Positions 688 to 50,810 of a stretch of 64,000 nucleotides of DNA are shown piece by piece; position 1 is the stretch's first letter, and every line of letters starts with the position of its first letter. Source of the DNA: an uncultured bacterium. Lineage in GTDB: Bacteria > Edwardsbacteria > CAYGWX01. A program made the position numbers and the translations under genes. The stretch spans positions 7,120 to 71,119 of the forward strand of contig CAYGWX010000005.1 in NCBI GenBank assembly GCA_964353855.1, given 5' to 3'. The notes beneath the pieces were generated by a model. The model saw nothing but the letters and a program-made list of their open reading frames with translations. It ran no database searches and was not told where the DNA came from.

Positions 688-777
688 GGGGAGACCATCA
701 TGACAGGGATCAGGGATCCATGATTTTAGATTTTGAGTTTTGGATTATCGATCCCTTATTCCAAAATCCAAAATCCT

Positions 778-2351: not shown

Positions 2352-2391
2352 GGGTCAACTCCTCTTTTTAGGTTTATTCTCGAGAGAAACG

Positions 2392-4055: not shown

Positions 4056-4057
4056 CT

Positions 4058-4270
4058 TCAGACCTCCTCGAGAAACGCCTGGGGCGCTGACGGGGCGCAG
4101 CCTTGAGGATGGCCGGACATCCAGTATTTTGGATTTTTGCTTTCAGACTTTAAATAGCCGGGGTCGGCCGAGATGACCTCTTGTAATTCGGATTGCACGG
4201 GCCCTAATCCAAGCCCTAACAATCCCAGGAAAGCCATTCCCGCAGCTTTCAGAAACGAACGTCTCTCCAC
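4058..4270 (-). CDS. Small (70 aa) protein with a twin-arginine (Tat) signal peptide
   Basis: MERRSFLKAAGMAFLGLLGLGLG is a canonical RRxFLK Tat motif plus h-region. The GTG start overlaps the pmbA stop by 1 nt. Tightly coupled within the tldD/pmbA operon. Confidence 0.5.
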   Translation of the reverse strand: MERRSFLKAAGMAFLGLLGLGLGPVQSELQEVISADPGYLKSESKNPKYWMSGHPQGCAPSAPQAFLEEV

Positions 4271-5607: not shown

Positions 5608-7053
5608 TTATGTCCCTCCCACCTTGACCTTCCGGAACCGGCACGGCGCCGCACCCTGGCCGGTCCGCATGTTCTGTCCCGGCTGGCCTTTGCCGCAGCT
5701 CGGAGTGCCCCAGACCTTCCATTCCCTCTCCCCGGCGATTCCATCTAGGGCGTTCCAAAACTCCACGGTGTTCCCGGAATAAAGCGGATTTTTGACCATC
5801 GCACCCAGCTTCCCTCCATGGATCTCGTATCCGATCTCGCAGCCCATCTTGAAACTCTCCCTCCGGTCATCGATGCTCCAGGAGGAGTTCCCAAGCATCA
5901 GGATGCCGTGGTCGGTCTCGGCGATGAGCTTCTCAAGAGAAGAAATGCCAGGGAGCAGGTTGATGTTAGTCATTCTGATCAAAGGCAGGTTCTGCCAACC
6001 CTGGGCCCGCATCGCGCCGGTGCTCTGGCGACCGATCTTCGTAGCCATCTCCCGATTCGTAAGATAGCCCGCTAAGAGGCCGTTTTTGATGAGTTCAACC
6101 CGTTGCGCCGGAACGCCCTCGTCGTCGTACCCGAAGGTTCCCAGCCCAAAGGGCGAGGTGGCATCCGCGGTGACAGTAATCAGGTCCGAGCCGTACTTGA
6201 GCTTGCCCAGCTTATCGGTCGTGGCGAAGCTCGTACCTGAGAAATTCTTCTCGGCTCCGAACACCCGGTCCAGCTCTAGAGGGTGTCCGATGGATTCGTG
6301 GATGATGAGCGAAACCGCTGGCCCGTCCAGGATGAGTATCGTAATATCCGGAAAACAATCCTTAGCTGAGAGCAGGGCCACGGCCTCCTCCCCGATCCGC
6401 TGGCATTCCTTTTCCATCGCCAATAGGCTGAGTAATTCATAGCCCCGGGTCTCGAACTGTCCTCCCCCTTGCGGGAAACTCCTTGTTCCTACTTCCCGCC
6501 GGGACTTCATCGCTGTGGCCTCGATGCCGGCTCCGGACTGATAGATCGTCTGTTCGATCTCGCTCCCTTCCGTCGAAGCGAACCAGGTCCGGGTACGGTG
6601 AAATTCTGCCGTGGCCGTAGCCTTGGTGACCCCCCTGACCTTCTGAATCAACTCATCGAGATGGGATAAAAAGGATGCCTTCTCCGACAGCGGAACCGCG
6701 AACGGATCTTTCTCAATCGCAGTGGTATGGGTTCCTGCGACCTTTCCCAGCGGAGCCAGGTGGACGGCTTCTTTCTTCAGCTTGGCGCTGGCTTTGGCGA
6801 TTTCGAGTGCCTTCTCAACCTCCCGCTTTACGCTGTCCTTGTCGGTTTCCGGCGTAGCGGCATACCCCCAAGCCCCTTCAACGAGCACGCGCACCCCAAC
6901 CCCCCGGCTTGCGGTGCGCGAGATGCCCTCCGGAGTCATTCCTGAAACGGTTAAGGACTCGTCCTCCATCTCCTCGAAACGGCAGTCGGCATAGGAAGCG
7001 CCCCGGCTTCGCGCCAGGTCGCAGGCTGAGAGGACGAGGTCCTTGGGCTCCAT
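5608..7053 (-). CDS. tldD: TldD family zinc metalloprotease
   Basis: HESIGHPLE (HExxxH) motif with glycine-rich TldD signatures. The track's 86-aa N-terminal extension was trimmed to MEPKDLVLS at 7051-7053, 2 nt after the upstream stop. Confidence 0.8.
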   Translation of the reverse strand: MEPKDLVLSACDLARSRGASYADCRFEEMEDESLTVSGMTPEGISRTASRGVGVRVLVEGAWGYAATPETDKDSVKREVEKALEIAKASAKLKKEAVHLAPLGKVAGTHTTAIEKDPFAVPLSEKASFLSHLDELIQKVRGVTKATATAEFHRTRTWFASTEGSEIEQTIYQSGAGIEATAMKSRREVGTRSFPQGGGQFETRGYELLSLLAMEKECQRIGEEAVALLSAKDCFPDITILILDGPAVSLIIHESIGHPLELDRVFGAEKNFSGTSFATTDKLGKLKYGSDLITVTADATSPFGLGTFGYDDEGVPAQRVELIKNGLLAGYLTNREMATKIGRQSTGAMRAQGWQNLPLIRMTNINLLPGISSLEKLIAETDHGILMLGNSSWSIDDRRESFKMGCEIGYEIHGGKLGAMVKNPLYSGNTVEFWNALDGIAGEREWKVWGTPSCGKGQPGQNMRTGQGAAPCRFRKVKVGGT

Positions 7054-7055
7054 GG

Positions 7056-7913
7056 CTAATCCGACAGGGTCACGCTGTGCGGGATGAGGTATATCCAGAG
7101 GGTCAAAAGCGTCCCCAGGATGGTCAGCCAGGCAAAGGCCTTGGGTCGGATGAGGTCCCGGGTGGAATCCTTCTGGAAGAGCGAGCGGTAGACCAGGATG
7201 AGCAAGACGAACCAGTAACCGAAGGCCAGGAGAGTCTTGTTGTCCGTGATGTCCCATCCAAACGGAAACCCGCTCCAGGGCGTGCCGAAGGTCTGTGCGG
7301 CCATGATCCACCCCAGGGGAAATCCCCCGATGAACAGGAACAATAAGGCCCAGAGGATCGGCTTCAAGGCCTGATGCACCGGCCGCCTGCCACCCAGGAT
7401 GTCGAAGGAGTAGAAGAAGGCCACGAGCAGGATGAACACCGCCGCGAACATGCAGAGCACGTGTCCGATGGTCACGAAAGGATGGACCACACCCTTAAAC
7501 TTGAGCAGGAAAGACTTGGATCCCGGCGCCTGGGCATCCGGCAGCGTGACCACCTGGCCCTGGGGCGTTTCGACCTGCAGGTAGTAATAAGCTCTTTGGC
7601 CTTTCTCCTGGTGCGGCACGAACCCGGAAAAGGTGTCCCTCAGCGCGACGCGCTCCATGGGTGCCCAGGAGAGGTTGCCCTGCTTCCCGATTTTATAATA
7701 TAGCTTGACGTTTCCCGGGTAAAGCGGGTTCGTGGTTGTGATGATGGCCTTGACCGGCGCGTCTCCGTCCCCGATCCATTCGCTGGTCGTGACATGCACG
7801 ATCCTGGCCCCCAGTTTTTCAACCACCATCGCCTGGCGGCGGTGCGTGGAGCCCTTGGACAGGGCAAAGAGCAGAAACACCACCACGAAGGCGATCCCGA
7901 GCTTCCATTTCAT
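7056..7913 (-). CDS. Integral membrane protein of unknown function, first gene of the tldD-pmbA operon
   Basis: N-terminal signal/TM, then a soluble domain of ~130 aa, then 4 predicted TM helices rich in W/F/G. 2-nt gap to tldD. Confidence 0.5.
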   Translation of the reverse strand: MKWKLGIAFVVVFLLFALSKGSTHRRQAMVVEKLGARIVHVTTSEWIGDGDAPVKAIITTTNPLYPGNVKLYYKIGKQGNLSWAPMERVALRDTFSGFVPHQEKGQRAYYYLQVETPQGQVVTLPDAQAPGSKSFLLKFKGVVHPFVTIGHVLCMFAAVFILLVAFFYSFDILGGRRPVHQALKPILWALLFLFIGGFPLGWIMAAQTFGTPWSGFPFGWDITDNKTLLAFGYWFVLLILVYRSLFQKDSTRDLIRPKAFAWLTILGTLLTLWIYLIPHSVTLSD

Positions 7914-8069
7914 GGGCCGACTTCTCCTAAGTTCTCACGATTCTCAAACTTATCAGTTTAACACCTTTCCCCTTGAAAAGTCAAGGGAAGTTAAGCCCGG
8001 AGTTACCTCCTGGCCTGCTTCGTCGAAGCGAGATGGAAATGGGCCGGCTGCATTTTCCACACCTTGACC

Positions 8070-8098
8070 TTGACAAAATCCTTTATCCATAGTATCCT
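8070..8098 (+). promoter_or_regulatory. Candidate sigma70 promoter for the GGDEF giant (TTGACA-17-TATCCT)
   Basis: TTGACA at 8070-8075, a 17-nt spacer, and TATCCT at 8093-8098. The ATG at 8116 follows about 10 nt after the predicted transcription start, with no SD. Confidence 0.35.
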
Positions 8099-8115
8099 TA
8101 TAAGATTAGAAAACC

Positions 8116-11100
8116 ATGACTTCCGAGACCGAAACCATCGGACTCCCCAGTGAGGAAAAGGACCTGGCCTCCCTGGTCGGCAAGCGGGTCATCGAGGATA
8201 TGCTCGCGGCCATCATCGGTTATCTGCCGACCCGGGCTGCCCTGTTCGATCCCCAGGGCCGGGCTCTCGTCGAGCTCTCTCCCTGTGACTATTGCCAGGC
8301 CCTGAAAGAACGGGACGGTTCCCCGGTGTGCACCGGGTTTTACTCGTCCTTCGTACAGGATACCGCACGGACCCAGACCCCACTGGAGCGGTCTTGCCCC
8401 GGAGGCTGCCTGATGCACTCCGAGCCCGTTCTGTTCGGCGGCCACACCCTGGGCGTCCTCCTGCTCCGTCTCTCGGCTCCCCCCACGGATCCGGCCGCGC
8501 TTGCGCCCATCGCCGATGCGTTCTCTCTTCCCAGTGAGGTTTTGCTCCAAAAGGCAGGCCGGGTCCCGAACTTCCCCGAGCCTCTCGTGCTGGCTGCCCG
8601 GGACCATCTCGCTCAAACCGCACGCTTAATCCCCGAACTCTACCGGGCTGTGCTGGCCGAACGCAAGGCGCGGGAACTGGCCGCCATCCAGGCCATCGTC
8701 GCCACGGTCAGCCAGGCCAAGGACGCCAAGAGCCTGGCCAAGCGCGCCATGGAGACGATCCTGGAGCTCCTGCATCTGGAGATCGGGGGCCTCGCTTTCT
8801 ACGATTCCCAAAAGGGCGAATTGGTCACCGCCGCGATCATCGGACTTCCCCCGGAGTTGGCGGTCCATTATGCCCGGATTTCCCTCAAGACGGGTTCCGG
8901 CATCGCAGCCCAGGTCGCCAAGACCCACCAGCCTATTTTGGTGACGGATGTCTCCCAGCCTTCCTTCACGGTGGGCAATTCCCAGGAAGTGATCAAGCAG
9001 CTCCGCATCTCCTCCCTGGTGATCATGCCGCTCCTCGTAGCCGGGGAGTTCGTCGGCGGCATCGAGGTCGCGGCCCAGGGCGAGCGGCGCTTTACCCAGG
9101 AAGATCTCGACCTCATTTCCTCGGTCGCCACTCCCCTCGGCGTGGGCCTGAGGCGCCTCCGCCTGCAAGAGGACCTCCAGACCCGGAACCAGGAACTCCT
9201 GGCTTTGAACTCCATCACGGCCAGCATCAGCCGCTCCCTGAACCTCGAGGCCATCCTCCACGATTCCCTGGACAACATCATCGAGCTCTTCCAGGCCCAG
9301 GGCGGGACGCTTTATCTCGTGGACGAGGCCGGGGAACGCCTCATCCTCTCCGCCTCCCGCAATGCGCCGGACTGGTACCTGACGATGGCCGGGACCCTCC
9401 CCTTCGGCGCGGGCCTCGGCGGTAAGACCGCCAAGGCGGGCGGCCCACCCCGCGTCGGGAACATGGCCGACCTCTACCAGGACTATCCCGACATCCTCCG
9501 CCGCATGGAGGAGACCTACGGCAAAGGGGGGGAGACCCTCTATGTCGCGGCTCCCCTGCTCTCCCGGGACCGCGTCCTCGGGGTCATGCATCTCGTGTTT
9601 CGCGGGCCCCGGGAGTTCCGCCCCGAGGAGCTCGGCCTTCTCGGCTCCATCGGGAACCAGATCGGCCCGGCCATCGAGAACGCCCGGCTTTACGAATCCG
9701 AGCACCGCCGCCGGGCCCAGCTCGCCGGGCTCTCCGAGATCGTCCGGGCCCTTTCCGCGGAGCACGATCTCGGGACCCTGCTCAAGATGATCGTGACCCG
9801 CGCCGCCGAGGTCATGCACGCCCAGGCCACCAGCCTGATGATGTGGGACGAGGAGGAAGAGCATCTCCTCATCCGGGCCAGCCAGGGCCTCAGCCCGAGA
9901 TACGCTTCCGAATACCGCATTCCCCGGGAACGGACCCTGAATCTGGAGACCTCCCCCGACGGAAGGTTCGTTCCGATCATTCTCGCTGAACTCGCCGAAC
10001 AGCCCTTTGGAAAAATGGAGTTTAACAGGGAAGAAGGCCTCTGTTCGTTATTGACCATCCCCCTCGCCGGGTCCAGGACCCCAATCCATCGGGGAAGGAG
10101 GGCCGGGCTCTCCGGGCTCCTGAACATCTACAGCAAGGGCGAGCCCCGGGAGTTCCGTCCCGAAGAGGTGGAGCTGGCCGCCATCTTCGCCGACCAGGCC
10201 GCCGTGGCCCTGGACAATGCCCGCCTCCTCGCCGAGCGCGAGCGTCGCATCGCCCAGCTCGGGGTCCTGAACCAGATCAGCCAGGCGATCAGCGCCACCC
10301 TGCGCTTCGACCAGCTTCTGGATTTGATCTACTGGCAGGTCAGCCGAGTCATGGATACGGCCAACTTCTACATCGCCCTGGCCTATCCGGAGAAGAACCT
10401 CCTGACCTTCGAATATTTCGTCGAGGACCGCAAGCGTTCGGAGCGCCAGAGCCGGCAGATGGCCAACGGCCTGACCGAACACATCCTGCGCAGCCGGAAA
10501 CCCTTGCTCATCTCCGGAAACATCGCCGCAGCCTGCCAGGACCTCGGGGTCGAGCTGATGGGTCGCCTGTCTCAATCTTATCTCGGGGTTCCGATGACGA
10601 TCGGCGAGACCATCATCGGGGTCATTGCGGTGCAGAGCTATACCCGTGAAGATGCTTACGGCACGGACGACCAGGAGCTCCTGGCCACCATCGCCCACCA
10701 GGCCGCCATCGCCGTGGAGAACGCCCGGCTCTACGAGTCCACGAGCCAGCGCATGAAGGAGATCGGCATCCTCTATCGCATCGCCCAGAGCCTCTCCACC
10801 TCCCTGGACCTGGACAGCCTGCTGGCGAGCTTCCTCGAGGTCCTGAACCAGGAGCTCGGATACCGCTGGGCCATCCTGCTCCTGGTGGACAGGGAGAAGA
10901 ATGAGCTGTTCATCCGGGCCTGCCCTCCGGATTATCCCCAGGAGGTCCAGGAGAAGGTCCGGTTCAAAATCGGGGCCGAGGGGATCTCGGGGCACGTGGC
11001 CCTGACCGGCGAGCCCGTGGTCCTTTCCGACGTCACCCGGGATCCGCGCTATGCCCCCGGACTGATCCAGGCGCGCTCCGAGATCGCGGTTCCGCTGAAG

Positions 11101-12895: not shown

Positions 12896-13105
12896 CCACT
12901 CCCTGGAGTGGAGCTTCCACTCACCTGAGTGAAGCCGCCACTCACCTGAGTGAAGCCGTCGCTCCCCTGAGTGAAACCACCACTCACCTGAGTGAAGCCG
13001 CTACTCACCCCAGTGAAGCCGCCACTCACCTGAGTGAAGCCGTCACTCCCCGGAGCGGAGCCGTCACTCTTAGGAGTGGAGACATCACTCCCCCTGGTAT
13101 CGGGG
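12896..13105. repeat. Array of about 9-10 tandem 21-bp direct repeats (consensus CACTCACCTGAGTGAAGCCGC), each with a 7-2-7 inverted repeat TCACTCA-cc-TGAGTGA
   Basis: Read directly from 12896 to 13105. Units are contiguous with no spacers. The 21-bp period equals two helical turns. Sits between the DGC stop and the pilT start. Confidence 0.8.
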
Positions 13106-13161: not shown

Positions 13162-14304
13162 ATGCCCGAAAACGACTTCACCCACGAATACGGCGAAGCG
13201 CCCCTGGTTTCGCTCGAGGCCCTGCCCATCGACCAGCTCCTCGAGGAGCTGGTCCTGCGCAACGCCTCGGACATCCACCTCCGGGTGGGCGAGCCCCCGG
13301 CCTACCGGGTGTTCGGCGAGCTCACCCGCTCCGAGCTGACCCCCCTCTCCGCCGACGAGCTCAAGAAGCTCCTCTACGCCGTGATGAACGAGGAGCGGCG
13401 CGAGCGCTTCGAGCGCACCTGCGAGCTGGACATGTCCTACGCCATCCAGGGCGTGGCCCGCTTCCGCATCTCGGTCTTCCGCCAGCGCGGGGAGATCGGC
13501 GCCGTGCTCCGGGTCATCCCGCTCAAGCTCAAGTCCATCGACGACTGGGGCCTGCCCCAGATCATCAAGCAGTTCGCCACCCTGCCCAGAGGGCTCATCC
13601 TGGTCACCGGGCCCACCGGCTCCGGCAAATCCACCACCCTCTCCGCCATGGTGGACTACATCAACGAGTCCCGCCGGAGCCACATCATCACCATCGAGGA
13701 CCCCCTGGAGTACGTGCACCACGACAAGCAGTCCGTGGTGGAGCAGCGCGAGATCGGGGTGGATACCCGTTCCTTCGCCTCGGCCCTGGCCCACGTCATG
13801 CGCCAGAATCCGGACGTCATCATGGTCGGCGAGCTCCGCGACCATGAGACCATGTCCCTGGCCATGTCCGCGGCCGAGACCGGGCATCTCGTCCTCTCCA
13901 CCCTGCACACCATGGACGCCTCCCAGACCGTGGGCCGGATCATCGACGCCTTCTCCCCTGAGGAGCAGACCCAGGTGAGGCTCCAGCTCTCCACCGTGCT
14001 CCAGGGCGTGGTCTCCCAGACCCTGCTCCGTCGGACCGACGGCCCGGGCCTGGTGGCCGCCTTCGAGATCATGACCTGTACCGGGGCCATCAAGAGCCTC
14101 ATCCGCGAGGGCAAGACCCCGCAGATATATTCCCTGATCCAGACCGGCAGCCGTTACGGCATGCAGACCCTGGACCAGTCTTTGAAGGAGCTTCTGTTCA
14201 AGGGCATCGTCTCGGCCGAGGATGCCCTGGCCCGCTCGGCCAACCCCCAGGAGTTCGAGGGCGCCATCAATGCCCTCCAGCCCCCCCGGGGCCCGGGGGG
14301 CTGA
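13162..14304 (+). CDS. pilT: Type IV pilus retraction ATPase PilT family
   Basis: Walker A GPTGSGKST, Asp box, Walker B DVIMVGELRD, His box, and the PilT signature AIKSLIREGK. Confidence 0.85.
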   Translation: MPENDFTHEYGEAPLVSLEALPIDQLLEELVLRNASDIHLRVGEPPAYRVFGELTRSELTPLSADELKKLLYAVMNEERRERFERTCELDMSYAIQGVARFRISVFRQRGEIGAVLRVIPLKLKSIDDWGLPQIIKQFATLPRGLILVTGPTGSGKSTTLSAMVDYINESRRSHIITIEDPLEYVHHDKQSVVEQREIGVDTRSFASALAHVMRQNPDVIMVGELRDHETMSLAMSAAETGHLVLSTLHTMDASQTVGRIIDAFSPEEQTQVRLQLSTVLQGVVSQTLLRRTDGPGLVAAFEIMTCTGAIKSLIREGKTPQIYSLIQTGSRYGMQTLDQSLKELLFKGIVSAEDALARSANPQEFEGAINALQPPRGPGG

Positions 14305-14309
14305 CGGGC

Positions 14310-14504
14310 TTGAAGGTTCGTGATATGATCAAGAGGATCGAGACGGATGGCTGGTTTTTAATAGCCACGAAAGGCAGCCACCGCCAATACAAGCATCCCA
14401 CGAAACTGGGACGGGTAACCATTGCCGGCCAGCCTAACCATGACTTGGCCGCCGGAACCTTGAACAGTATCCTGAAGCAGGCCCGACTGAAGGAGTTGAA
14501 CTAG
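14310..14504 (+). CDS. hicA: HicA-family mRNA interferase toxin
   Basis: 64 aa with a YcfA/HicA-like KGSHRQYKHP motif. 5 nt after the pilT stop. Local GC is about 52% against about 68% in flanking DNA. Confidence 0.75.
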   Translation: MKVRDMIKRIETDGWFLIATKGSHRQYKHPTKLGRVTIAGQPNHDLAAGTLNSILKQARLKELN

Positions 14505-14506
14505 CA

Positions 14507-14719
14507 ATGCACCGCTTCCTTATCGTCATCGAAAGGGCCGACGGGAACTATTCGGCCTATTCTCCGGATCTTCCGGGGTGCGCGGCCACCGGCGCGACCC
14601 GCGAAGAGGCCGAACGGAACATGCACGAGGCCATCGAGATGCACGTTCGGGGGCTTGAGGAGGACAAGCTTCCTGTGCCCGAGTCCAATTCCTTCGCCGA
14701 ATACTTAGCCATACCATAA
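14507..14719 (+). CDS. hicB: HicB-family antitoxin
   Basis: 70 aa with the UPF0150/HicB N-terminal fold signature (YSAYSPDLPGCAATGATREEA). 2 nt after hicA. Confidence 0.7.
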   Translation: MHRFLIVIERADGNYSAYSPDLPGCAATGATREEAERNMHEAIEMHVRGLEEDKLPVPESNSFAEYLAIP

Positions 14720-14802
14720 GGGCAGCTAACCAACGAACCGATGTTTCCGTCCACCCGTCTAAGCGTTCAACCGTCTAACTTTTGCAGGGTGGGTTGATCC
14801 CC

Positions 14803-15873
14803 ATGCAGATGCTGGACCTGCTCTACGCCACCTTCACCAAGAACGCCTCCGACCTCGTCCTGAAGGCCGGCAGCCCGCCCCTGGTCCGCATCCAGGGCGA
14901 GCTCATCCCCCTGGCCTATCCGCCCCTCACCGCGGACGAGACCCGCGCCCTGGTCCTCTCCATCCTCACCCGGGTCCAGGTGGAGAAGCTGGAGCGGGAC
15001 CTCGAGCTGGACATCGCCACCAGCCTGTCCAACCTCGCCCGCTTCCGGGTGAACGTCTTCCACCAGCAGGGAACCCTGGCCATGGTCGCCCGGGTGGTGA
15101 GGAGCAAGATCCCCAGCCTGGATGACCTCGGCCTCCCGCTCGCGGCCAAGGCCCTGGCCTTGAAATCCAGGGGCCTGGTCCTGGTGACCGGCCCGGCCGG
15201 GTGCGGCAAGTCCACGACCCTGGCGGCGCTCTTAGAGTTCCGCAACCAGACCCTGCCCTGCCACATCATGACCATCGAGGACCCCATCGAGTTCGTCTAC
15301 CTGGGCAAGAAGGCCCTGGTCAACCAGCGCGAGATCGGGGTGGACACCCTCTCCTACGCCGAGGCCCTGCGCAGTGTCCTGCGCCAGGACCCGGACGCCA
15401 TCATGGTCGGGGAGCTCCGCGACCGCGAGACCCTGGGCATGGCCCTGACCGCGGCCGAGACCGGGCATCTGGTCCTCTCCACGATGCACACCTCCTCGGC
15501 CGTGGAGACGATCGACCGCATGGTCGGCATCTTCCCGGCCCACCAGGAATCCCAGGTCCGCCTGCAGATCTCGGTGAACCTGGGCGGCATCATCTGTCAG
15601 CAGCTCCTCGCCCGGGCGGACGGCAAGGGCCGGCTCCCGGCCTATGAGATCCTGCTGGTCAACGCCGCCGTGCGTTCCCTGATCCGCGAGGGCAAGACGG
15701 CCCAGCTCCCCTCCGCCATCCAGACCGGGGCCAGGCTGGGCATGTCCACGATGAACGCCTACCTCGCCGAGCTCGTCAAGCGGGGCGTGGTGACCCTCGA
15801 GGAGGCCATGAAGAAGACCGAGACCCCGGAGGAGCTGAAGGGGATGGCCGGAAGCAAGCCTTCGGCTTCCTAA
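14803..15873 (+). CDS. Second PilT/PilU-family ATPase paralog
   Basis: Walker A GPAGCGKST, DAIMVGELRD, and AVRSLIREGK. Start moved to the ATG at 14803 (MQMLDLLY); the track begins at a TTG at 14782. Confidence 0.8.
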   Translation: MQMLDLLYATFTKNASDLVLKAGSPPLVRIQGELIPLAYPPLTADETRALVLSILTRVQVEKLERDLELDIATSLSNLARFRVNVFHQQGTLAMVARVVRSKIPSLDDLGLPLAAKALALKSRGLVLVTGPAGCGKSTTLAALLEFRNQTLPCHIMTIEDPIEFVYLGKKALVNQREIGVDTLSYAEALRSVLRQDPDAIMVGELRDRETLGMALTAAETGHLVLSTMHTSSAVETIDRMVGIFPAHQESQVRLQISVNLGGIICQQLLARADGKGRLPAYEILLVNAAVRSLIREGKTAQLPSAIQTGARLGMSTMNAYLAELVKRGVVTLEEAMKKTETPEELKGMAGSKPSAS

Positions 15874-15900
15874 AGAAAAGGATAATCCGCCAAAAGAAGA

Positions 15901-15928
15901 GGGCCGCCCAATGGGCGGCCCTTTAATT
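15901..15928. terminator. Bidirectional rho-independent terminator between convergent pilT paralog and antitoxin
   Basis: GGGCCGCCC-aat-GGGCGGCCC stem-loop followed by TTTAATT on the plus strand and a T-rich run (CTCTTCTTTTG) on the minus strand. Confidence 0.6.
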
Positions 15929-15952
15929 GCGGGGTGGGCTCAAGGTCTATTT

Positions 15953-16189
15953 TCAGGAGCTGCGTTTCCGGGGTCCGAGGCCGTGCTTCGCTCGCCCGGA
16001 CAGTCGCCGTTTGATCTCGGCCAACCCGATCGTCGCGGCCTTGCCTTCCCTTTCCTTGGCCTGGCGCAGACAGCGCAGGTCCTCGTAATCCTCCAGCTCC
16101 TCCCGGAGCCTTAGGAATTGAGCATAGGGAAGAACGGCAAAGGCCTTTCTCCCGTTTTTTTCGATGATCTGGGCTTCCATATGGCTCAT
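15953..16189 (-). CDS. Type II antitoxin (Phd/YefM or RelB-like) partner of the upstream RelE-type toxin
   Basis: 78 aa, acidic/basic with a predicted N-terminal beta-strand then helices (KNGRKAFAVLPYAQFLRLREELED). 9 nt downstream of the toxin gene. Local GC is about 50%. Confidence 0.55.
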   Translation of the reverse strand: MSHMEAQIIEKNGRKAFAVLPYAQFLRLREELEDYEDLRCLRQAKEREGKAATIGLAEIKRRLSGRAKHGLGPRKRSS

Positions 16190-16198
16190 GGCTTCTCC

Positions 16199-16447
16199 CT
16201 ATCGGTAGGCTTCTCTGCGGTGGCGGATGCGATAGACGATGATCGTTCTCCCGTCCACTTCGAACAGCACGCGGTATGCGCCGACTCGCATGCGGTATTC
16301 CGGAGTGAAGTTCGTGAGGTGCTTCACGTCTCCCCGCAGGTCTTTTAGCATGGTTTCGATCTTTTCCAGGATACGGCTCTGCGCCCGGGTCGAAAGACGC
16401 TCCAGATCCTTGACGGCTCCGGGCTTGAACCGGACCTCGTAGGCCAT
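16199..16447 (-). CDS. RelE/ParE-family toxin
   Basis: 82 aa ending ...RTIIVYRIRHRREAYR, the typical RelE/ParE C-terminus. Toxin-first gene order as in higBA. Confidence 0.7.
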   Translation of the reverse strand: MAYEVRFKPGAVKDLERLSTRAQSRILEKIETMLKDLRGDVKHLTNFTPEYRMRVGAYRVLFEVDGRTIIVYRIRHRREAYR

Positions 16448-16601
16448 GTCTTCCCCGTATTATGGGATGGGTTCTGTTGCCGGGCTGACCGCGGACATCA
16501 TCTTGCTCGTCATCCTGAACTTGGTTCAGGATCTCGTCGTTTCTTATCTCACCTAAGAGGATTATACTCGAAACCGGGCTGAAAATCAAGGGGCTCCCCA
16601 A

Positions 16602-16734
16602 AAAGGAGGCGATGAAGAAGACCGAGACCCCGGAGGAGCTGAAGGGGATGGCTGGCACCCATCCCGCGCCCTCATAGCCGCCCCCCGGCGCAATCTAAGG
16701 ATAAAGTAAAAAGGGCCGCCCAAAAGGGCGGCCC
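16602..16734 (+). pseudogene. Relic copy of the pilT-paralog 3' coding end plus its terminator hairpin (insertion scar)
   Basis: A 41-bp run (atgaagaagaccgagaccccggaggagctgaaggggatggc) is identical to 15809-15849. It is followed by ctaaggataaag and GGGCCGCCC-aaaa-GGGCGGCCC, mirroring 15873-15921. Confidence 0.7.
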
Positions 16735-16952
16735 TTGTGTTTGTGGGGCGGGGGCGAAGCCCCGCCCCCCTCCTGTTACAACTCATTACCATTTTTTACT
16801 ATTCATTACTCTTCTTTTCCTTCCGTCTCACTATCTCACCTTCACGATCCGCACAATCTCGTCATGCTGAACTTGTTTCAGCATCTCTCTTCCCGGCATC
16901 ATTGCGAGGAGCGTAGCGACGAAGCAATCTCGCCGTACCTCCTCACTCCTTT

Positions 16953-19300: not shown

Positions 19301-19424
19301 AATTAGTGTGAAGTTAGCGTGAAATTAGAGAGAAGTTAGTGTTAAATTAGTGTTAAATTAGACTTAAATTAGTGTTAAATTAGACACAACTTAGTGTGAA
19401 CTTGGCGTGAAGATGGCGTGAGGT
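19301..19424. repeat. AT-rich tandem repeat of about 10 units with a 12-bp period (TTAGTGTTAAAT / GGCGTGAAGATG)
   Basis: Direct reading. Lies 170-290 bp upstream of the BNR cargo gene start. The last units grade into the GGCGTGAGGTG form seen elsewhere in the window. Confidence 0.7.
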
Positions 19425-29696: not shown

Positions 29697-29737
29697 GGAG
29701 GGCGTGAAGTGGGCGTGAAGTGGGCGTGAGGTGGGCG
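29697..29737. repeat. 3.5 tandem copies of the 12-bp unit GGGCGTGAAGTG
   Basis: Read directly. 215-255 bp upstream of the M6 protease start. Confidence 0.7.
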
Positions 29738-29953
29738 GAAACCCCTCTTGGATTGCGGAGCTTTGTTGGCCCTCCCCCTCGGGAGCTTGTCCCGTCGGAG
29801 GACGGGATAACTGAGCTTTGTCTGCCCTCTTTACGCGCGAAAGTTAAAGCCTCCGGCTTGCCCCGGATTTTTCGGAACCTGCCCACCACCCGCTCTAAAC
29901 CCGGATGAACCTGAAAAGGAACCCGACTCACTGAAGGTTCCTTTTCGTTTGCT

Positions 29954-36075: not shown

Positions 36076-36146
36076 AGGGAGGTAACAGGGAGGGATCAGG
36101 GAGGAAAGAGGGAGGGATGTGGGCGTGCAATGGGCTTTTAATGGGG
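36076..36146. repeat. Four tandem 11-bp AGGGAGGnnnn units followed by a GTGGGCGTGCAATGGG motif
   Basis: Read directly. 210-280 bp upstream of the PorQ-like gene. The GTGGG(C/T)GT(G/T)CAATGGG motif recurs at 50059-50075. Confidence 0.65.
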
Positions 36147-36186
36147 GAGCGGTGGGCGTTCAACCCTCCCTCACACCTCCTCTCCT

Positions 36187-45167: not shown

Positions 45168-45962
45168 TCAAACCTCTGCCAACTCTCCGCGAAAGATCGT
45201 TACGGCTTCTCCGCCTAATCGCACCCGATCCCCCTCGACGCGGACCCGCACCATCCCTCCCCGGGCTGAAGCCTGATAGGCTACCATCTCTTTCTTGCCC
45301 AGACGTCCTATCCAGAACGGCCCCAGACAGCAGTGCGCGGACCCGGTCACCGGGTCCTCCGGAACTCCGGCCCCGGGGGCAAAGAACCGCGACACGAAAT
45401 CAAATCCCGGTGTGGAGGCCATGCTCGTGACGATGACTCCCCGAACTTCGATCCGCTTGAGCTTTTCGTGATCGGGCTTGAGCCTCCGGACCATCTCTTC
45501 CGATTCCACCTCCACGAGGTAGTCGAACCGGCTCTTGCCCACCGTCTTGGGGACCACCCCCAAGGCCTCGCTCAATCCCTTCGGTGCCTTCGCCGGAGAA
45601 GGGGGTGTGGCCGGGAAATCCAGCTCGATCTCCTCCCCCACCTTCCGGGCCGTGAGCAGGCCGCTTTTGGTGTGAAACCGCGCCTCCTTGTCCCCCGCCA
45701 GCAGGCCGGCCTCCCAGAGCACATGGGCGCTCGCCAGGGTCGCATGCCCGCAGAGGTCCACCTCCACCGCCGGGGTGAACCAGCGCAGGCCGTAACCATC
45801 CTCCCGGGGAACGAGAAAAGCCGTCTCGGAGAGGTTCATCTCCCGGGCCACGTTCTGCATCCAGCCCACCTCCCGCTCTTCGGGAAGCAGACAAACCCCG
45901 GCCGGATTCCCGGCAAACGGCTTCTTCGTGAAGGCATCCACCTGATAGATTTTTATTCCCAT
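45168..45962 (-). CDS. PhzF-family (phenazine biosynthesis-like) isomerase/epimerase
   Basis: MGIKIYQVDAFT..PFAGNPAGV N-terminus and DAP-epimerase-like fold signatures. Confidence 0.8.
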   Translation of the reverse strand: MGIKIYQVDAFTKKPFAGNPAGVCLLPEEREVGWMQNVAREMNLSETAFLVPREDGYGLRWFTPAVEVDLCGHATLASAHVLWEAGLLAGDKEARFHTKSGLLTARKVGEEIELDFPATPPSPAKAPKGLSEALGVVPKTVGKSRFDYLVEVESEEMVRRLKPDHEKLKRIEVRGVIVTSMASTPGFDFVSRFFAPGAGVPEDPVTGSAHCCLGPFWIGRLGKKEMVAYQASARGGMVRVRVEGDRVRLGGEAVTIFRGELAEV

Positions 45963-46164
45963 TAAGAAACTCTAAATGTCCGCGCAATGCTACGATGCAA
46001 GCCTTTCTGGTCCTCCTTGGAAATCAGGGGCAACCACTATATATTGTGGTCCCCTCGGAATTGTCTCGTAAGCAGCGCCGATAAAGCTCGGTTACGTCTG
46101 TTGAACCAAAACAGCCCGCAGAATGGGGATCTCCGAAAGGCCTCCGAAATCCGAGAGGGGTTCC

Positions 46165-46212
46165 CGCCTACCTCACGCCTACCTCACGCCTACCTCACGC
46201 CTACCCCACCCC
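46165..46212. repeat. 3 tandem copies of CCTCACGCCTAC (reverse complement GGCGTGAGGTAG)
   Basis: Read directly. Opposite orientation to the copies at 29697 and 47495. Confidence 0.7.
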
Positions 46213-46214
46213 CT

Positions 46215-46275
46215 TTTGGATACCCGACCACTATATATAGTGGGTGTTCCCTTTTTCACAATGAACGGCTGATTT
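46215..46275. repeat. Copy B of a 55-60 bp repeated element whose core is the perfect palindrome CCACTATATATAGTGG
   Basis: CCGACCACTATATATAGTGGGTGTTCCCTTTTTCACAATGAACGGCTGATTTTGGAGG. Related copy A lies at 46024-46060 and copy C at 46915-46975 (CCGACCACTATATGTTGTGGTGGTCCCCTATTTCACAAGGAGAGGCTGTTGTGAG). Confidence 0.7.
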
Positions 46276-46334
46276 TGGAGGTTGAGCCAGTGGATTAGAA
46301 CAAACATGCGTCGTGCTTATTTGCACCTAAAGTT

Positions 46335-46787
46335 CTATTCGGTTATTCTTAAGATAAATACACCCTTCGGATCAACCTGTTTTACTATTTCAAATACATG
46401 TTCTTTCTCGGGCTGTTTTGTCGAGTAAGAACGTCCATCCCTCGTATTCAAGTCGACGGTGCCATCGTGAGACGTGGTGACTGCAAACACTTTCCCTTCC
46501 ATTATTAATTGTTTCGCTTGGTACCATTCTATTTTCTCTTTTGGGGAATTGCGAACGATCTGCCAAAAAAAGGGGCGTAGAAAGGAGAGGTCAGAGAACG
46601 CAAGCAAGATTCGATGAGAATCACGTAAAGCCTCTTTCTCACGCTGGGTTATTGCAAGCTCATTAGATTTAAAACAGGGGACTAGTTGATCAACAAATTC
46701 GTCTGCCGGCATTTTCTTCGGATTCTCAGCCATCGCGATGCAAACGAATCCTATAAAGAAGGAAACTACCAAAGGCAACCGCATCAT
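46335..46787 (-). CDS. Hypothetical secreted protein encoded in a low-GC (about 40%) cassette
   Basis: Signal peptide MMRLPLVVSFFIGFVCIAMA. Codon usage and GC differ sharply from flanking DNA. Flanked by repeat copies B and C. Confidence 0.5.
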   Translation of the reverse strand: MMRLPLVVSFFIGFVCIAMAENPKKMPADEFVDQLVPCFKSNELAITQREKEALRDSHRILLAFSDLSFLRPFFWQIVRNSPKEKIEWYQAKQLIMEGKVFAVTTSHDGTVDLNTRDGRSYSTKQPEKEHVFEIVKQVDPKGVFILRITE

Positions 46788-46859
46788 TTTACACCTCCTG
46801 AGATAATAACCAGTTCAATTATCTAATGCCGCATGGCATGCATCGCTGGCGATGCTCTT

Positions 46860-46915
46860 CCTCCAAATAATCATCCCCAAAAGCAACATGATCACCCCAA
46901 CGGTCTTCAAACCCC
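46860..46915. pseudogene. About 55-bp relic fragment of the lspA 3' coding end (about 90% identical to 50278-50335)
   Basis: ctcttcctccaaataatcatccccaaaagcaacatgatcaccccaacggtc aligns with ctcttcctccaaataaccatccccaaaagcaacataatcacccccacggtc inside lspA (codons VTVGVIMLLLGMVIWRK). Same orientation. Confidence 0.7.
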
Positions 46916-47380
46916 GACCACTATATGTTGTGGTGGTCCCCTATTTCACAAGGAGAGGCTGTTGTGAGATAAATCATAGCATAATCAGCCCCATAAGGAC
47001 AAGGGGGCAGGCAGGAGCGGGAAGAAACCCGTTGCCATCTTCGGTTCGACAAAAAGGTCAGGGCTAAGAGCCCTGGCCCAAAGGAGGAGGCGATCCGGTC
47101 AGGATGCTCCCCCCATCCACTCCCGCTCTTTTCACCGGCATTGCACTGGCTTTACCCCGGCTTTACACCCTCTTTACACCCATTTAGCACCCTTCGGGAG
47201 GCTATACAAGGAGAGATCGTGCTGCGTGCGCCCGGAAGAGAGGCTTCGGAAGGATTTAGATCGGCACCAGTCTACTGATCGGATGTCGTCTGCCAACAGA
47301 AGGATGTCTGCATCTCCGTTAAAAGCCAAGGGGTTCCCCTTGTACAAGAGACACCCCTATGGCCTTTCTGATGTTACAAG

Positions 47381-49666
47381 CTACCTCACCACCACCATCT
47401 TTCTGGTGAGGGTCTGATCACAACCTTCGGCCCTCAGAAAGTAAACCCCGCTCCTCACCTCCTTTCCACTTCCATCTTTTCCGTCCCAATACACCTCGTG
47501 AGGCGTAAGGCGTGAGGCGTAAGGTGCAAACGACCTTACGACCCGGCCCGTAACATCGTAAACGCTCAGACGAACCGGCCCCAGAGCCACTGGCCCGAGT
47601 CGAATCGTACATCCCCCTTTTACCGGATTAGGGCTGATCGAAACATCAAATGACTCGGCCTTAAATGGATGGGCAACTTCCTGACCGACCCCGGATATGA
47701 TGGAATCCACGCCGAAGACCAGAAGATTTCCCAGATAGGCTCCGCCATAAGCTACGTTGAAGTTCTCGCCCCAGACATCCGTAATCGTCCAACCAGATTC
47801 ATAATGCCGGACAGACTGCGCCGGGTGAGGATTGCTTACATCCACCAGGTCCATCCGTCCACAGTATTCCACGGACTGATAATAATAGGTTCGCCCCCCT
47901 ACCCAGACATAGTGAGGGGCGAAGTAATGCAGCCCATACAGGGCATCCTCCCCGATTGAATGACTATACCATCCCGCTGTATCCGGACGCACCGGGTTGG
48001 CTACGGTAATGATATAGAGCCCATCCCCAGGATTCCGGAAATAGGCTAAGATATAGCCCAAGGTATCCGCAAACTCTACGTCTTTTCCGCCAGGTGCAGG
48101 CCAGTCCCAGTCATATGCGTTGCGCGGACTACGCGGATCGCTCACATCAATCACATGAAACGTCCAAGGCAACCCGTCCGGCACATAGGCGTATTGCCCA
48201 CGAACCCACAAATCGTAAACTCCATCGCCAGGACCCCGCCACCTCCCTAAAAAGTAGGGATTCCGGGGATCCGCCACATTCACAGTCCACAAATTGTCAC
48301 CGAAATGTCCCGAAAGATAGACCAGCGTGTCCTGCACAAAGATGCCGTAGGCCACCCCGGTCTGCAATCCAGACCAGCGCCCGATCACCGTAGGCTGGGC
48401 CGGATTCCGAATGTCCACAATAACCAGTCCGCTATCTCCCTCGGCGGCGTAAAGCAGAGAGTCCTTCAACATGATGTCAAGCGTCCTCCAGGGTATCTCC
48501 AAGTGGCCAAGCTCAACAGGCTGAGAGGGGTTAGACACATCCAGCACCCGAAGCCCGTCCATGCCGTGGGCCACATAGAGATAATTCCCCTGCTTCACCA
48601 ACTCCCAGCAGGCATCCCCGGTAGGATAATGAGTAATCTCCCGAGGCTGGGAAGGATTTCGAACGTCCATCACCCGAAGGCCCTTGCCGCCGTCGGCAAA
48701 GTAGACCAAACTGTCTTTGGCAAAGACATCACCCCCTGAGCCTGGTGTCTCGTAACGACCCAGCTCAACAGGATTTGCCGGATCTGTGATATCAATAACC
48801 CACATGTGGCTGAGACTGCTTGGGGGATAACGATCATATTCAAAATAGTCCTCGCAGAGGTAAGCAAGGTTGCCAGAGACGGTAACGCTGCGAGGAAAGA
48901 CATATTGACCGCTGGGACGGAAGCATTTTATTTTCAGAGGGACTTGGGGATTCTTTACGTTTACTATACAGAGGCCGCTATCCAATGCCGCAACATAAGC
49001 TAGCGTATCACGGATGATGAGATCCATCGTACCACCAAGCCCCGTACATCGTCCCACTTTACGAACATCAAAGGGATCGCGGATATTATACACTGCGAGT
49101 TCAGAAGTCCACCCCGCACCGACAACATAAGCCAGCGTGTCCACCACTTGTATTTTCTTCCCCCAACTGGTATCGTAACCCGCTACCACAAAGGGAGAAG
49201 CAGGGTCGTTCACATTGATCACGAACAAATCCGAGGAATCCTGCATCCCACCGCTCCCAACTACGTATGCGAGAGAATCTTTAACCCAAACTCCATGCAT
49301 ATGATACCCGCACCTCACCTTCCCCACCACCCTCGGAGCCCTCACATCCCGCACATCCACAATCGCCAGACCGTTATAAGCATCTACCAGATAGGCATAG
49401 CCGTTCTGGACGAAGAGGTCCTCTATGATGGAGAAATTCACATCATACGCCCTGCCCATCTCCACAGGATTCGCCGGGTCCGAAACATCCAAAATAAGCA
49501 GGCCGCAGCTCACTCCCACATAGGCGTAGTCCCCTTGCACCACTACCTGACGGGCAGGGCCTAAGAGGGTCTGGCCCAAAAGCCGCATCCCCAGGCTGTC
49601 CCGAGGGAAAGCCGAGGAAGTTCCTGCAATGCAAACAAGGACAAAGATTAAAAATAGGATGCGCTT
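47381..49666 (-). CDS. LVIVD-repeat beta-propeller protein with T9SS C-terminal sorting domain
   Basis: At least 12 repeats of G(L)x(I/V)(V/I)D(V)S(N/D)PxxP. C-terminus ...GVYFLRAEG...KMVVVR. Signal peptide MKRILFLIFVLVCIAGTSSA after the internal start; the track's longer start is 49735. Confidence 0.75.
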   Translation of the reverse strand, partial: KRILFLIFVLVCIAGTSSAFPRDSLGMRLLGQTLLGPARQVVVQGDYAYVGVSCGLLILDVSDPANPVEMGRAYDVNFSIIEDLFVQNGYAYLVDAYNGLAIVDVRDVRAPRVVGKVRCGYHMHGVWVKDSLAYVVGSGGMQDSSDLFVINVNDPASPFVVAGYDTSWGKKIQVVDTLAYVVGAGWTSELAVYNIRDPFDVRKVGRCTGLGGTMDLIIRDTLAYVAALDSGLCIVNVKNPQVPLKIKCFRPSGQYVFPRSVTVSGNLAYLCEDYFEYDRYPPSSLSHMWVIDITDPANPVELGRYETPGSGGDVFAKDSLVYFADGGKGLRVMDVRNPSQPREITHYPTGDACWELVKQGNYLYVAHGMDGLRVLDVSNPSQPVELGHLEIPWRTLDIMLKDSLLYAAEGDSGLVIVDIRNPAQPTVIGRWSGLQTGVAYGIFVQDTLVYLSGHFGDNLWTVNVADPRNPYFLGRWRGPGDGVYDLWVRGQYAYVPDGLPWTFHVIDVSDPRSPRNAYDWDWPAPGGKDVEFADTLGYILAYFRNPGDGLYIITVANPVRPDTAGWYSHSIGEDALYGLHYFAPHYVWVGGRTYYYQSVEYCGRMDLVDVSNPHPAQSVRHYESGWTITDVWGENFNVAYGGAYLGNLLVFGVDSIISGVGQEVAHPFKAESFDVSISPNPVKGGCTIRLGPVALGPVRLSVYDVTGRVVRSFAPYASRLTPHEVYWDGKDGSGKEVRSGVYFLRAEGCDQTLTRKMVVVR

Positions 49667-49988
49667 CATTTGAAATGCTCCCATTGATGCAAAAGGAGAC
49701 CTATGCCCCTTTCTCAGGGGTGTCTCCTTTCTCATCTTCCAGCTTCAACCCGACCGAACCGAACCATCCGAACCACATCTTCACCTAACCCTCCTCAACC
49801 GAATAAGGAGCCCGAAAGCCAACTCACGGAAGAGAAACGATGGTGCGCTGCTTGCCTGGCTGTTAAAGCATAACAAATTCAGGCGGCGACGTCAAGCTCA
49901 AAATCAACGAAGGCAGATAAATCCCTTGAAATGAGTGCTCAATTATATACTTCCATCCCCAATCCGCATTAAAAAACCCCTGAAATAC

Positions 49989-50075
49989 GTGGGGTGGGTG
50001 TACAGTGGGTGTTTGGTGGGTGTTCAATGGGTGTTCAATGGGCCCCCAAAACGAAGGTCTGGGTGGCCCATAGGA
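49989..50075. repeat. Tandem 12-bp GGTGGGTGTTCA / ATGGGTGTTCA repeats
   Basis: Read directly. 320-400 bp upstream of the LVIVD cargo gene. Confidence 0.65.
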
Positions 50076-50243
50076 AACCCACTCACAATTTTGGGGTGGC
50101 CCACCCTCTCCTTTTTGCCCTTTCCGTCAATTCCTCGTAACCCCTTGAAGATGGCCCTGATTGCGTAAAATTGGCTCATTTCACCCAACCAAGAATAAAA
50201 TCATGTTTACTTAATAGACGACATAAGGAACAAAAGGAGGGAG

Positions 50244-50810
50244 CTACAGAATGTGGGAAGTCAAAACCTTCGCTTTTTCGGACGTAATACTCTTCCTCCA
50301 AATAACCATCCCCAAAAGCAACATAATCACCCCCACGGTCACCCCGGCATCCGCCAGGTTGAACACCGGCCAGCGATCGAGATGATAACTCCCGATATGG
50401 ATATCGGGAATATTCACATCGATGAAATCCCGCACCTCGCCCCAAAGGAGCCGGTCGATGAAGTTCCCGATGGCCCCGCCCAGGATCAGGGCAAAAGCCA
50501 GAAGGTTCCAGGGAGAACGATCTTTAATTTTGAAGTAGTAAAGGAGGATGAGGAGGATAGCGATGAGGGAGAAAACAAGAAAGGCCGCATTCGAGCCCAT
50601 CTTCAGGCTGAACGCGCCATGCGGATTGCGGATGTAGGTCAGACGGACCGCATCGCCCAGGACCGGAAGGGAGGACCCCAGGGCCATCCGGGCCGCCACC
50701 AGGGCTTTGGTGAGCTGGTCCAGCAGGACCCAGAGCGGACTGAGGATGAGGAGGAAGCCGAGGCCGCGAACCCGGAGACTATCGGATCTTCCGGGCCTCT
50801 CGGGCCTCAT
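50244..50810 (-). CDS. lspA: Lipoprotein signal peptidase II
   Basis: LspA motifs FNLADAGVTVGV and NPHGAFSL. Conserved ileS-lspA synteny. Confidence 0.85.
   Translation of the reverse strand: MRPERPGRSDSLRVRGLGFLLILSPLWVLLDQLTKALVAARMALGSSLPVLGDAVRLTYIRNPHGAFSLKMGSNAAFLVFSLIAILLILLYYFKIKDRSPWNLLAFALILGGAIGNFIDRLLWGEVRDFIDVNIPDIHIGSYHLDRWPVFNLADAGVTVGVIMLLLGMVIWRKSITSEKAKVLTSHIL

Follow-up and report, generated by a model that had tools for sequence, protein, structure and literature searches.

A displaced copy of the lspA 3′ end beside an LVIVD-repeat gene: probable stacking of two alleles at a variable genomic islet

The end of lspA, the gene for signal peptidase II, occurs twice in a 64,000-nucleotide (nt) stretch of DNA from an uncultured bacterium (GTDB lineage Bacteria; Edwardsbacteria; CAYGWX01; contig CAYGWX010000005.1, positions 7,120 to 71,119), hereafter called the window. 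The second copy is an orphan fragment separated from the intact gene by a 3.4-kb segment, whose sole gene codes for an LVIVD-repeat beta-propeller protein. We propose, with a probability of about 0.6, that two alleles of a genomic islet were stacked here by recombination anchored in lspA homology, together with one blunt illegitimate join at positions 46906/46907. The duplication, the empty sites in related strains, the diversity of alleles at the locus and the origin of each piece are direct observations, and they are described first.

The repeated end of lspA

Read on the minus strand, the locus consists of the block ileS-dksA-lspA, of which lspA is the final gene and whose gene order is kept in all relatives, followed by two units of like design. 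The first unit comprises a repeat copy named R54, a variable lspA tail (tail B), an array of 11-nt repeats, a promoter-like site, the LVIVD gene, a second, inverted array, a terminator-like hairpin and a palindromic promoter-like element, PAL-C. The second comprises the orphan copy R54′, another lspA tail (tail A), the open reading frame (ORF) ORF150 and the element PAL-B, and is followed by an array-containing conserved element, a third palindromic element (PAL-A) and the genes phzF-rpiB-glyA.

The lspA gene itself is intact (50244..50810, minus strand; 188 amino acids, aa; Pfam Peptidase_A8, E=6.9e-37). R54 (50287..50340, minus strand) codes for its last transmembrane helix, ...VTVGVIMLLLGMVIWRKSI, and is the last conserved stretch before the variable region, which in the window is tail B (SITSEKAKVLTSHIL*; 50244..50286, minus strand). 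The orphan R54′ (46852..46905, minus strand), with the in-frame reading TVGVIMLLLGMIIWRKSIASDACHAALDN, continues into tail A (SIASDACHAALDN) and its stop codon (46816..46851, minus strand). The two copies form a direct repeat of 54 nt in the same orientation and in frame, identical at 50 of 54 positions (93%); the four mismatches are scattered along the repeat, the longest perfectly matching run measuring 18 nt. A 51-nt core of this repeat (3 mismatches) is found twice in the window and in none of 100 shuffles. An earlier note on this DNA had described a repeat of about 55 bp at about 90% identity in the same orientation, directly abutting a repeat copy “C”; both statements hold, its coordinates being off by 5-10 nt and copy C being PAL-C (46913-46961).

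At the new junction between R54′ and PAL-C (46906..46907), the flank of PAL-C (...GGTTTGAA) is joined bluntly to the lspA fragment (GACCGT...), with a microhomology of 0-1 nt. The Logan contig L012, built separately from the reads of run ERR3804373, matches window positions 46176-47474 at 100% identity and covers the 3′ end of the LVIVD gene, PAL-C, the orphan piece of lspA and ORF150. Since L012 crosses the junction at 100% identity, the junction was present in the reads and is not an artefact of the source assembly.

Empty sites in related strains

Close relatives of the window were found as JGI and ENA metagenome contigs, with ileS 92-97% and lspA at least 86% identical at the amino acid level. 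An ileS of at least 90% identity is also present on the long contigs P0123 (362 kb), P0125 (192 kb), P0127 (68 kb), P0128, P0134 and P0122. GTDB species representatives still conserve the ileS-dksA-lspA order, but their nearest lspA is 47% and their ileS ~35% identical, and at this distance no empty site can be defined from them. Named GlyA homologues, at 71-73% identity, place the lineage near Candidatus Zixiibacteriota.

Two of the relatives, L013 and L040, are exact empty sites, in which window position 50287 is joined directly to 46898. In L013, positions 1-2413 correspond to window 52699-50287 and positions 2367-4349 to 46898-44945; in L040, positions 1-7929 correspond to 58214-50287 and 7883-10496 to 46898-44314. 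A five-way alignment confirms that the lspA upstream sequence, R54 and tail A are contiguous in both, and in L013 the intact lspA is directly followed by ORF150, whose product is 98.7% identical in aa to the window copy. The 3.4-kb segment was therefore added, and the earlier view, that it is an insert with the lspA 3′ end repeated directly on either side, is borne out, an ileS-dksA-lspA locus lacking the insert being available in two relatives. Neither the LVIVD gene nor R54′ is carried by any of 12 other related lspA loci, which include the same-lineage L039 and P0138. Extra copies of R54 amount to the single one in the window, with none at the related loci, so that there is no array of orphan tips.

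Both lspA tails of the window occur elsewhere as native tails of intact alleles. Tail A is identical to the intact lspA tail of L013 and L040, while tail B is homologous to those of L014, L015, L019 and L021, a homology that reaches window positions 50256-50260. R54′ is a mosaic, with its first 26 nt of the common lspA type and its last 28 nt identical to L013 and L040. The ORF150 cassette is 98-99% identical in nt between the window and L013, compared with 93-97% in the flanks; this contrast, together with the switch of type at about nt 26 of R54′, indicates that homologous exchange does occur within R54. The lspA gene is itself a mosaic: a patch at 50450-50560, coding for YYFKIKDRSPWNLLAFALIL and common to P0137 and P0138, is ~70-76% identical to the sister lineage, versus 90-100% in neighbouring lspA.

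A hypervariable islet between lspA and phzF

Among the close relatives and the window, at least seven alleles occupy the gap between lspA and phzF. ORF138, for a 138-aa membrane protein, is present in L014, L015, L019 and L021 (the L021 copy being disrupted), and a relative of its protein, of 109 aa, is encoded by ORF109 in L017. A different membrane protein of 136 aa (ORF136) is found in L024 and L039, and a 163-aa protein (ORF163) in L016. The allele of L020 combines a GIY-YIG nuclease gene with ORF388, for a 388-aa membrane protein, and P0138 has the same tail. L013 and L040 carry ORF150, and the window carries the LVIVD gene plus ORF150. These cassettes all have a low GC content (0.37-0.54 versus 0.60-0.64 in the flanks; in the window, 0.43-0.54 over 45963-50340 versus 0.59-0.64 in the flanking genes), and the same islet alleles are present in both lspA lineages. 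After the conserved ...IWRKSI, lspA ends in at least six different tails; four tail families part at one codon right after R54, and the allele breakpoints are spread at +0, +17 and +45 nt after it. The region between the two genes is a hypervariable islet, recombination in its flanks serving to exchange the cassettes.

Hairpin repeats of ~27 nt are dispersed in these genomes. In the window they lie at 16509-16535 and 16861-16887, and also at 16899-16930 (GTCATCCTGAACTTGGTTCAGGATCTC); in L020, three copies (216-242, 271-300 and 636-668; GTCATTCTGAGCGnAGCGAAGAATCTC) flank the small GIY-YIG nuclease gene, which starts just after the lspA repeat. This hairpin-flanked gene may be a small selfish unit.

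Proposed stacking of two alleles

Both borders of the cassette are duplicated in the window: R54 and R54′ on one side (54 nt, 93%), and PAL-C and PAL-B on the other (49 nt, 82%, at a spacing of 690 nt). This is the pattern of two whole alleles in tandem. PAL-C (46913..46961, minus strand), a promoter-like element (TTGTGA...TATAGT) with the palindrome ACCACAACATATAGTGGT, forms the right end of the added unit. Its flank, GGGGTTTGAA, is up to the junction of the type found next to PAL-B in L015, L020, L024 and L039, unlike the flank of the resident PAL-B, which reads GGGTATCCAA. Since foreign-type sequence extends from PAL-C all the way to the junction, two different alleles have been joined, rather than resident DNA duplicated.

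The gene within the segment also has relatives elsewhere. LVIVD homologues at 62-73% identity occupy other loci, and the LVIVD module of the window (49897-47378, including promoter and leader) is 78-82% identical in nt to the genes that stand first in LVIVD-CARDB clusters of unrelated loci, with counterparts in L030 (after an argH-like gene), in L037 and in the tandem LVIVD genes of L033. The homologues at these other loci carry no R54 or PAL. On these comparisons, the gene is best described as a promoter-bearing copy from a chromosomal paralogue family. Taken together, the origins of tail B, PAL-C and the LVIVD gene make the segment look like another allele of the islet and not like a dedicated mobile element.

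The form of the donor, the direction of transfer and the enzymology, like the function of the promoter-like elements, we infer from the sequences, and the following scenario is our preferred account. The left border of the islet is the last constrained part of lspA (R54) and its right border PAL-B, and the low-GC cassette of each strain carries its own lspA tail. The LVIVD allele would come from a related strain and would have entered through lspA homology on one side, either as a linear donor anchored homologously in lspA or in upstream genes, as in homology-facilitated illegitimate recombination (HFIR), or as a circularized fragment crossing over once within R54, in the manner proposed for rhs tips. 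The data do not separate these two routes: the mosaic of R54′ would fit the circle, and would fit an earlier exchange too. The sole non-homologous step would be the blunt join at 46906/46907, of the donor PAL flank to the point where R54 begins. The lspA end of the recipient, with its partner ORF150, would have been pushed downstream, leaving lspA intact with a new tail, and no dedicated integrase would be required.

Several points weigh against this scenario. The donor allele that it predicts (lspA, tail B, LVIVD, PAL and phzF, without R54′) was found in no contig, and for the interior of the LVIVD gene the source assembly is the sole witness. The junction has at most 1 nt of microhomology, whereas HFIR junctions usually show a few bases of it, and for a single crossover by RecA, 54 nt at 93% identity is a short stretch. 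The two scars in 64 kb, one at lspA and one at pilT, hint at something more systematic than rare illegitimate events, and the recombinase scan covered only about 17 ORFs of the window.

A second scar at pilT

The tail and terminator of the second of two pilT genes, pilT2 (15800-15935), recur at 16604-16745, with 73 nt at 85% identity. The insert between them, at 15936-16603, carries a ParE toxin and Phd-like antitoxin pair on the minus strand (16447-16199 and 16189-15953). Judged by its layout, this scar has the same topology of 3′-end displacement as that at lspA. By eye, the surroundings of the hairpin in the pilT2 insert and the native downstream flank have no homology beyond the hairpin repeat. 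The earlier note had paired this duplication with that at lspA and had taken the two to suggest a recurring mechanism. The pilT duplication is real, as is the other, and two scars in 64 kb are suggestive; they are no proof, however, of a dedicated mechanism, and the two have no site in common.

A HicA/HicB toxin-antitoxin pair (14310-14719) lies between the tandem pilT paralogues (13162-14304 and 14782-15873), so that a toxin-antitoxin module follows each of both pilT genes. Just upstream of pilT1, a 21-nt tandem repeat (CCACTCACCTGAGTGAAGCCG) occurs in ~8 copies with a super-period of 42 nt (12896-13094).

Alternative explanations

The layout of the locus also recalls that left by a site-specific element, in which an attP resembling the lspA 3′ end would have been inserted at an attB in lspA, R54 and R54′ being attL and attR, and the integrase being lost or acting in trans. 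Direct repeats at both ends, one of them in a gene 3′ end, an lspA restored with a new tail, and the existence of empty sites are all in keeping with this, as are the second 3′-end duplication, around a toxin-antitoxin module at pilT, and the divergence of four tail families at the same codon after R54. A clustering of tail divergence at the end of R54 is, however, also expected from selection, since constraint on LspA ceases there, and the allele breakpoints, at +0, +17 and +45 nt, are fuzzy rather than placed at one nucleotide. No recombinase was found in the 3.4-kb segment, nor among the 17 window ORFs scanned with Pfam, and within R54 we found neither inverted binding sites nor a fold, the longest identical run available as a crossover core being 18 nt. 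Tail B and PAL-C are native sequences of the same locus in other strains, LVIVD homologues elsewhere come without R54 or PAL, and none of the 12 related lspA loci has the unit. Finally, the scars at pilT and lspA have no site in common, PAL being found only at the lspA locus. Such an element is in our opinion unlikely, and we do not follow the earlier note in its att-type target duplication by an integrating element with a lost integrase, because recombinase, att core and folded site were all missing from what was searched and tail B and PAL-C are native to the locus. Scans with Rfam (gathering thresholds and E<=1, 45900-50300) and for tRNA and tmRNA turned up no RNA gene suitable as an att target. 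A dif/Xer-like site in R54, which does contain TTATGTT, was rejected on informal inspection by eye, since there is no 11-6-11 palindromic architecture. As for other kinds of element, the 3.4-kb segment has no transposase, and a duplication of 54 nt that is only 93% identical is no transposon hallmark; the inverted 11-mer arrays were considered as transposon ends and discarded, because arrays of this sort are present singly at four further sites. Hallmarks of integrons were likewise missing, with no integrase among the scanned ORFs and weak folds in the PAL elements.

Tandem duplications are frequent in bacteria, and one could picture the stretch from R54 to PAL-B being duplicated in situ, with the content of the first copy later replaced by the LVIVD allele via homologous recombination. 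The two-unit architecture with both borders repeated would follow directly, and homologous exchange of alleles is evident at the locus; nevertheless, this would take two events where one suffices, and the foreign type of the PAL-C flank right to the junction would demand a right crossover in the last few bases. Because donor-type sequence reaches the junction, duplication followed by replacement is less likely, and we regard it as quite improbable. Concatenation of two co-occurring strain alleles by the metagenome assembler has in its favor that samples of the same kind show polymorphism at the locus, that Logan contigs break at the arrays flanking the LVIVD gene (breaks fall at 49994, 47474 and 46176, and L010 and L011 both end at the 49994 array), and that exact-protein look-ups of the LVIVD gene, with three start choices and P0001, returned no contig besides the NCBI one. 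On the other side, L012 runs at 100% through the LVIVD 3′ end, PAL-C, R54′, tail A and ORF150, and one would not expect any normal allele by itself to contain a stray piece of lspA fused with a PAL flank. R54 and R54′ share no identical run of at least 30 nt able to mislead a k=31 graph, and since the partners at the junction share no k-mer, a graph error cannot make the junction; an artefact is thus very improbable. The reverse polarity, in which the window arrangement would be ancestral and L013 and L040 would derive from it by deletion through R54-R54′ recombination, is very improbable as well. Direct repeats as long as 54 nt are able to promote a deletion, and the empty-site sequence exactly matches such a product, but the LVIVD gene and R54′ are absent from the 12 other related loci, including the same-lineage L039 and P0138, and the origin of the duplication would be left unexplained.

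A more speculative idea, which we hold to be distinctly improbable, is that the lspA end, and perhaps the pilT end, would be actively targeted, a homing-type nuclease or a trans-acting recombinase cutting at conserved gene ends and repair from other alleles driving the turnover and stacking of cassettes. What suggests it is the GIY-YIG allele next to R54, together with the breakpoints near PAL elements and the one codon at which four tail families part: in L020, whose tail is shared with P0138, a small free-standing GIY-YIG nuclease gene lies 16 nt after R54, among the three copies of the 27-nt hairpin. If true, a recurrent mechanism would be aimed at gene 3′ ends, seeding accessory genes without an element-borne integrase.

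The LVIVD unit and the displaced unit

The LVIVD-repeat gene (47381..49669, minus strand) codes for 762 aa from MKRILF (Pfam LVIVD, E=1e-58). At its C-terminus, the protein has a Por_Secre_tail match of 22.6 bits, under the cut-off, that is, a weak sorting domain of the type IX secretion system (T9SS); PorV genes are present in the window, and the product is probably a T9SS cargo. The promoter-like site of the gene (49867..49895, minus strand) reads TTGACG-17-TATGCT with a TG, is followed by a ~190-nt leader and is conserved in the L030 and L037 homologues. Some 100-150 nt upstream of it lies the 11-nt tandem array (GTGGGTGTTCA x4.5; 49994..50042, plus strand; TRF). Downstream of the gene, a second 11-nt array (GGGTGTAAAGN-like; 47128..47193, minus strand) is inverted relative to the first, and a terminator-like hairpin with a T-run (47059..47075, minus strand) closes the unit.

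The LVIVD family is usually clustered (L033, 169-7319; L030, 8001-13503) and then followed by a CARDB-domain T9SS gene. In L033, three LVIVD genes stand in tandem at 29-nt spacing, and the copy in the window corresponds to a solitary first gene with its promoter and leader. The paralogues have ~54% GC in their other genomic contexts, and for this reason low GC as proof of a foreign origin of the LVIVD gene was rejected.

The older gene of the displaced unit, ORF150 (46335..46787, minus strand), codes for a small secreted protein without a Pfam match. In L013 and L040 it would be co-transcribed with lspA, and in the window it is now probably served by PAL-C, a putative promoter. Beyond the islet, the first conserved gene is of the PhzF family (45168..45962, minus strand; Pfam E=3e-65), with a product 93-95% identical in aa in the relatives.

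PAL elements and 11-nt arrays

PAL-B (46223..46271, minus strand) is the resident promoter-like palindromic element, conserved in all relatives, and the right border of the variable cassette in all alleles. PAL-A (46020..46051, minus strand) lies directly upstream of phzF. PAL-B and PAL-C fit a sigma-70-like pattern (TTGTGA/GTGAAA ... TATAGT). The palindrome ACCACTATATATAGTGGT occurs at 46033-46050, 46227-46244 and 46917-46934, three sites versus 0.01 expected, each within a promoter-like element, and within the window PAL is found at the lspA locus only. As single strands, PAL-A, PAL-B and PAL-C fold weakly (-6 to -8 kcal/mol; z-scores -0.1 to -2.3). The R54 copies fold weakly too, with a z-score of -0.18 for R54 as single-stranded DNA, and neither they nor the PAL elements have an attC-like or cruciform-prone structure.

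The same palindrome is also present near position ~973 of L024 and ~1982 of L020. Three independent breakpoints fall at most 14 nt from a PAL palindrome, namely at PAL-C of the window (+14), at PAL-A in L024 versus L039 (+6), and in L020, where the left half of PAL-B is replaced. Past PAL-A, L024 (973-2123) has an opposite-strand gene of 379 aa in place of phzF, which is either another PAL-linked rearrangement or a chimeric contig.

Between PAL-B and PAL-A lies a conserved non-coding element (46060..46209, minus strand) made of an 11-nt array (GGCGTGAGGTA x4) and a conserved tail. This array-plus-tail element of ~150 nt (GGAAACCCCTCTCGGATTTCGGAG...GAGCTTTGTC...TTACG) is conserved at the lspA-phzF locus in all relatives and has a paralogous copy at 29700-29840 (plus strand), 87% identical over 60 nt. 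No persuasive RNA structure emerged, RNAalifold giving -13.9 kcal/mol with an unfavorable covariation term. In all, six intergenic arrays of 11-nt period occur in the window (19301-19421, 29700-29737, 36076-36150, 46165-46209, 47128-47193 and 49994-50042), using related G-rich units (GTGTGAA, GCGTGAA, GGTGTTCA and GGTGTAAAG). Five of them, that is, all except the array at 47128 downstream of the LVIVD gene, are placed ~170-370 nt upstream of start codons, and the genes that they precede include T9SS-related ones (BNR, PorV-like and LVIVD) and phzF. Their helical-turn spacing suggests a phased protein-binding array.

Comparison with known systems

The locus offers a clean, sequence-resolved case of an accessory gene being added, not swapped, at a strain-variable islet beside a housekeeping gene, with a second copy of a promoter-like element now placed where it could maintain expression of the displaced gene. 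It also illustrates that a duplicated gene 3′ end alone is no evidence of an integrase. Moreover, it defines a population-level polymorphism, with at least seven alleles, that could be tracked in sediment metagenomes.

The closest parallel in design comes from rhs and cdiA genes, whose C-terminal tips are displaced when a tip acquired laterally, together with some core sequence and a gene downstream, recombines into the locus, circular intermediates having been proposed (Jackson et al. 2009, PMC2935791). As in those genes, a conserved core bears alternative 3′ tips, and the previous tip, still attached to some core sequence and to its partner gene, is displaced downstream as an orphan. Here, however, the core is a housekeeping peptidase, lspA, and not a polymorphic toxin; the variable tail is of ~10-20 codons without evident function; there is one orphan and no array; and the promoter-like palindromic right border has been duplicated too. 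Pfam matches to toxin or immunity families were absent among the cassette genes.

Arrays of effector-immunity modules of type VI secretion (the T6SS) in Vibrio cholerae have been attributed to HFIR, homologous replacement being commoner at the same locus (Kirchberger et al. 2017, PMC5361080). They share with the lspA locus an upstream anchor of homology with an illegitimate join, an ancestral downstream gene kept in shifted position, and the lack of an integrase. The continuous lspA homology on the left side and the blunt, novel join of PAL flank and lspA fragment on the right are likewise what HFIR would leave. HFIR also calls for donor DNA to be taken up, by natural transformation or conjugation, and pilT genes are present in the window. 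The differences lie in the class of gene, in the organism, here an uncultured Zixibacteria-like lineage, and in the scar, where the end of the anchor gene is duplicated in frame over 54 nt.

Integrase-borne islands and elements of the tycheposon type, at tRNA genes or gene 3′ ends, are likewise variable islands at a fixed site (bioRxiv 10.1101/2020.12.28.424599). The lspA locus differs from them in that no integrase, no tRNA or tmRNA target and no defined att core were found, and in that its cargo is an allele of the same locus. Islands of these kinds reportedly have direct repeats on both sides, copied from the 3′ end of their target, and some are said to hold cargo only. Flexible islands of the replacement type, and recombination hotspots between core genes, also resemble our locus: many alternative low-GC gene sets share one pair of conserved flanks, in which homologous recombination swaps them across lineages. 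A simple replacement creates no duplicate, however, and the window shows the rarer outcome, addition. With integrons, the islet has in common that promoterless or small cassettes are stacked at one site and older ones displaced distally, but no intI, attI or attC was found, and the PAL elements are weakly folding and promoter-like. Set beside all these systems, the scar at lspA is a recombination scar of a known, ordinary kind in a flexible islet, and nothing about it indicates a new mobile element.

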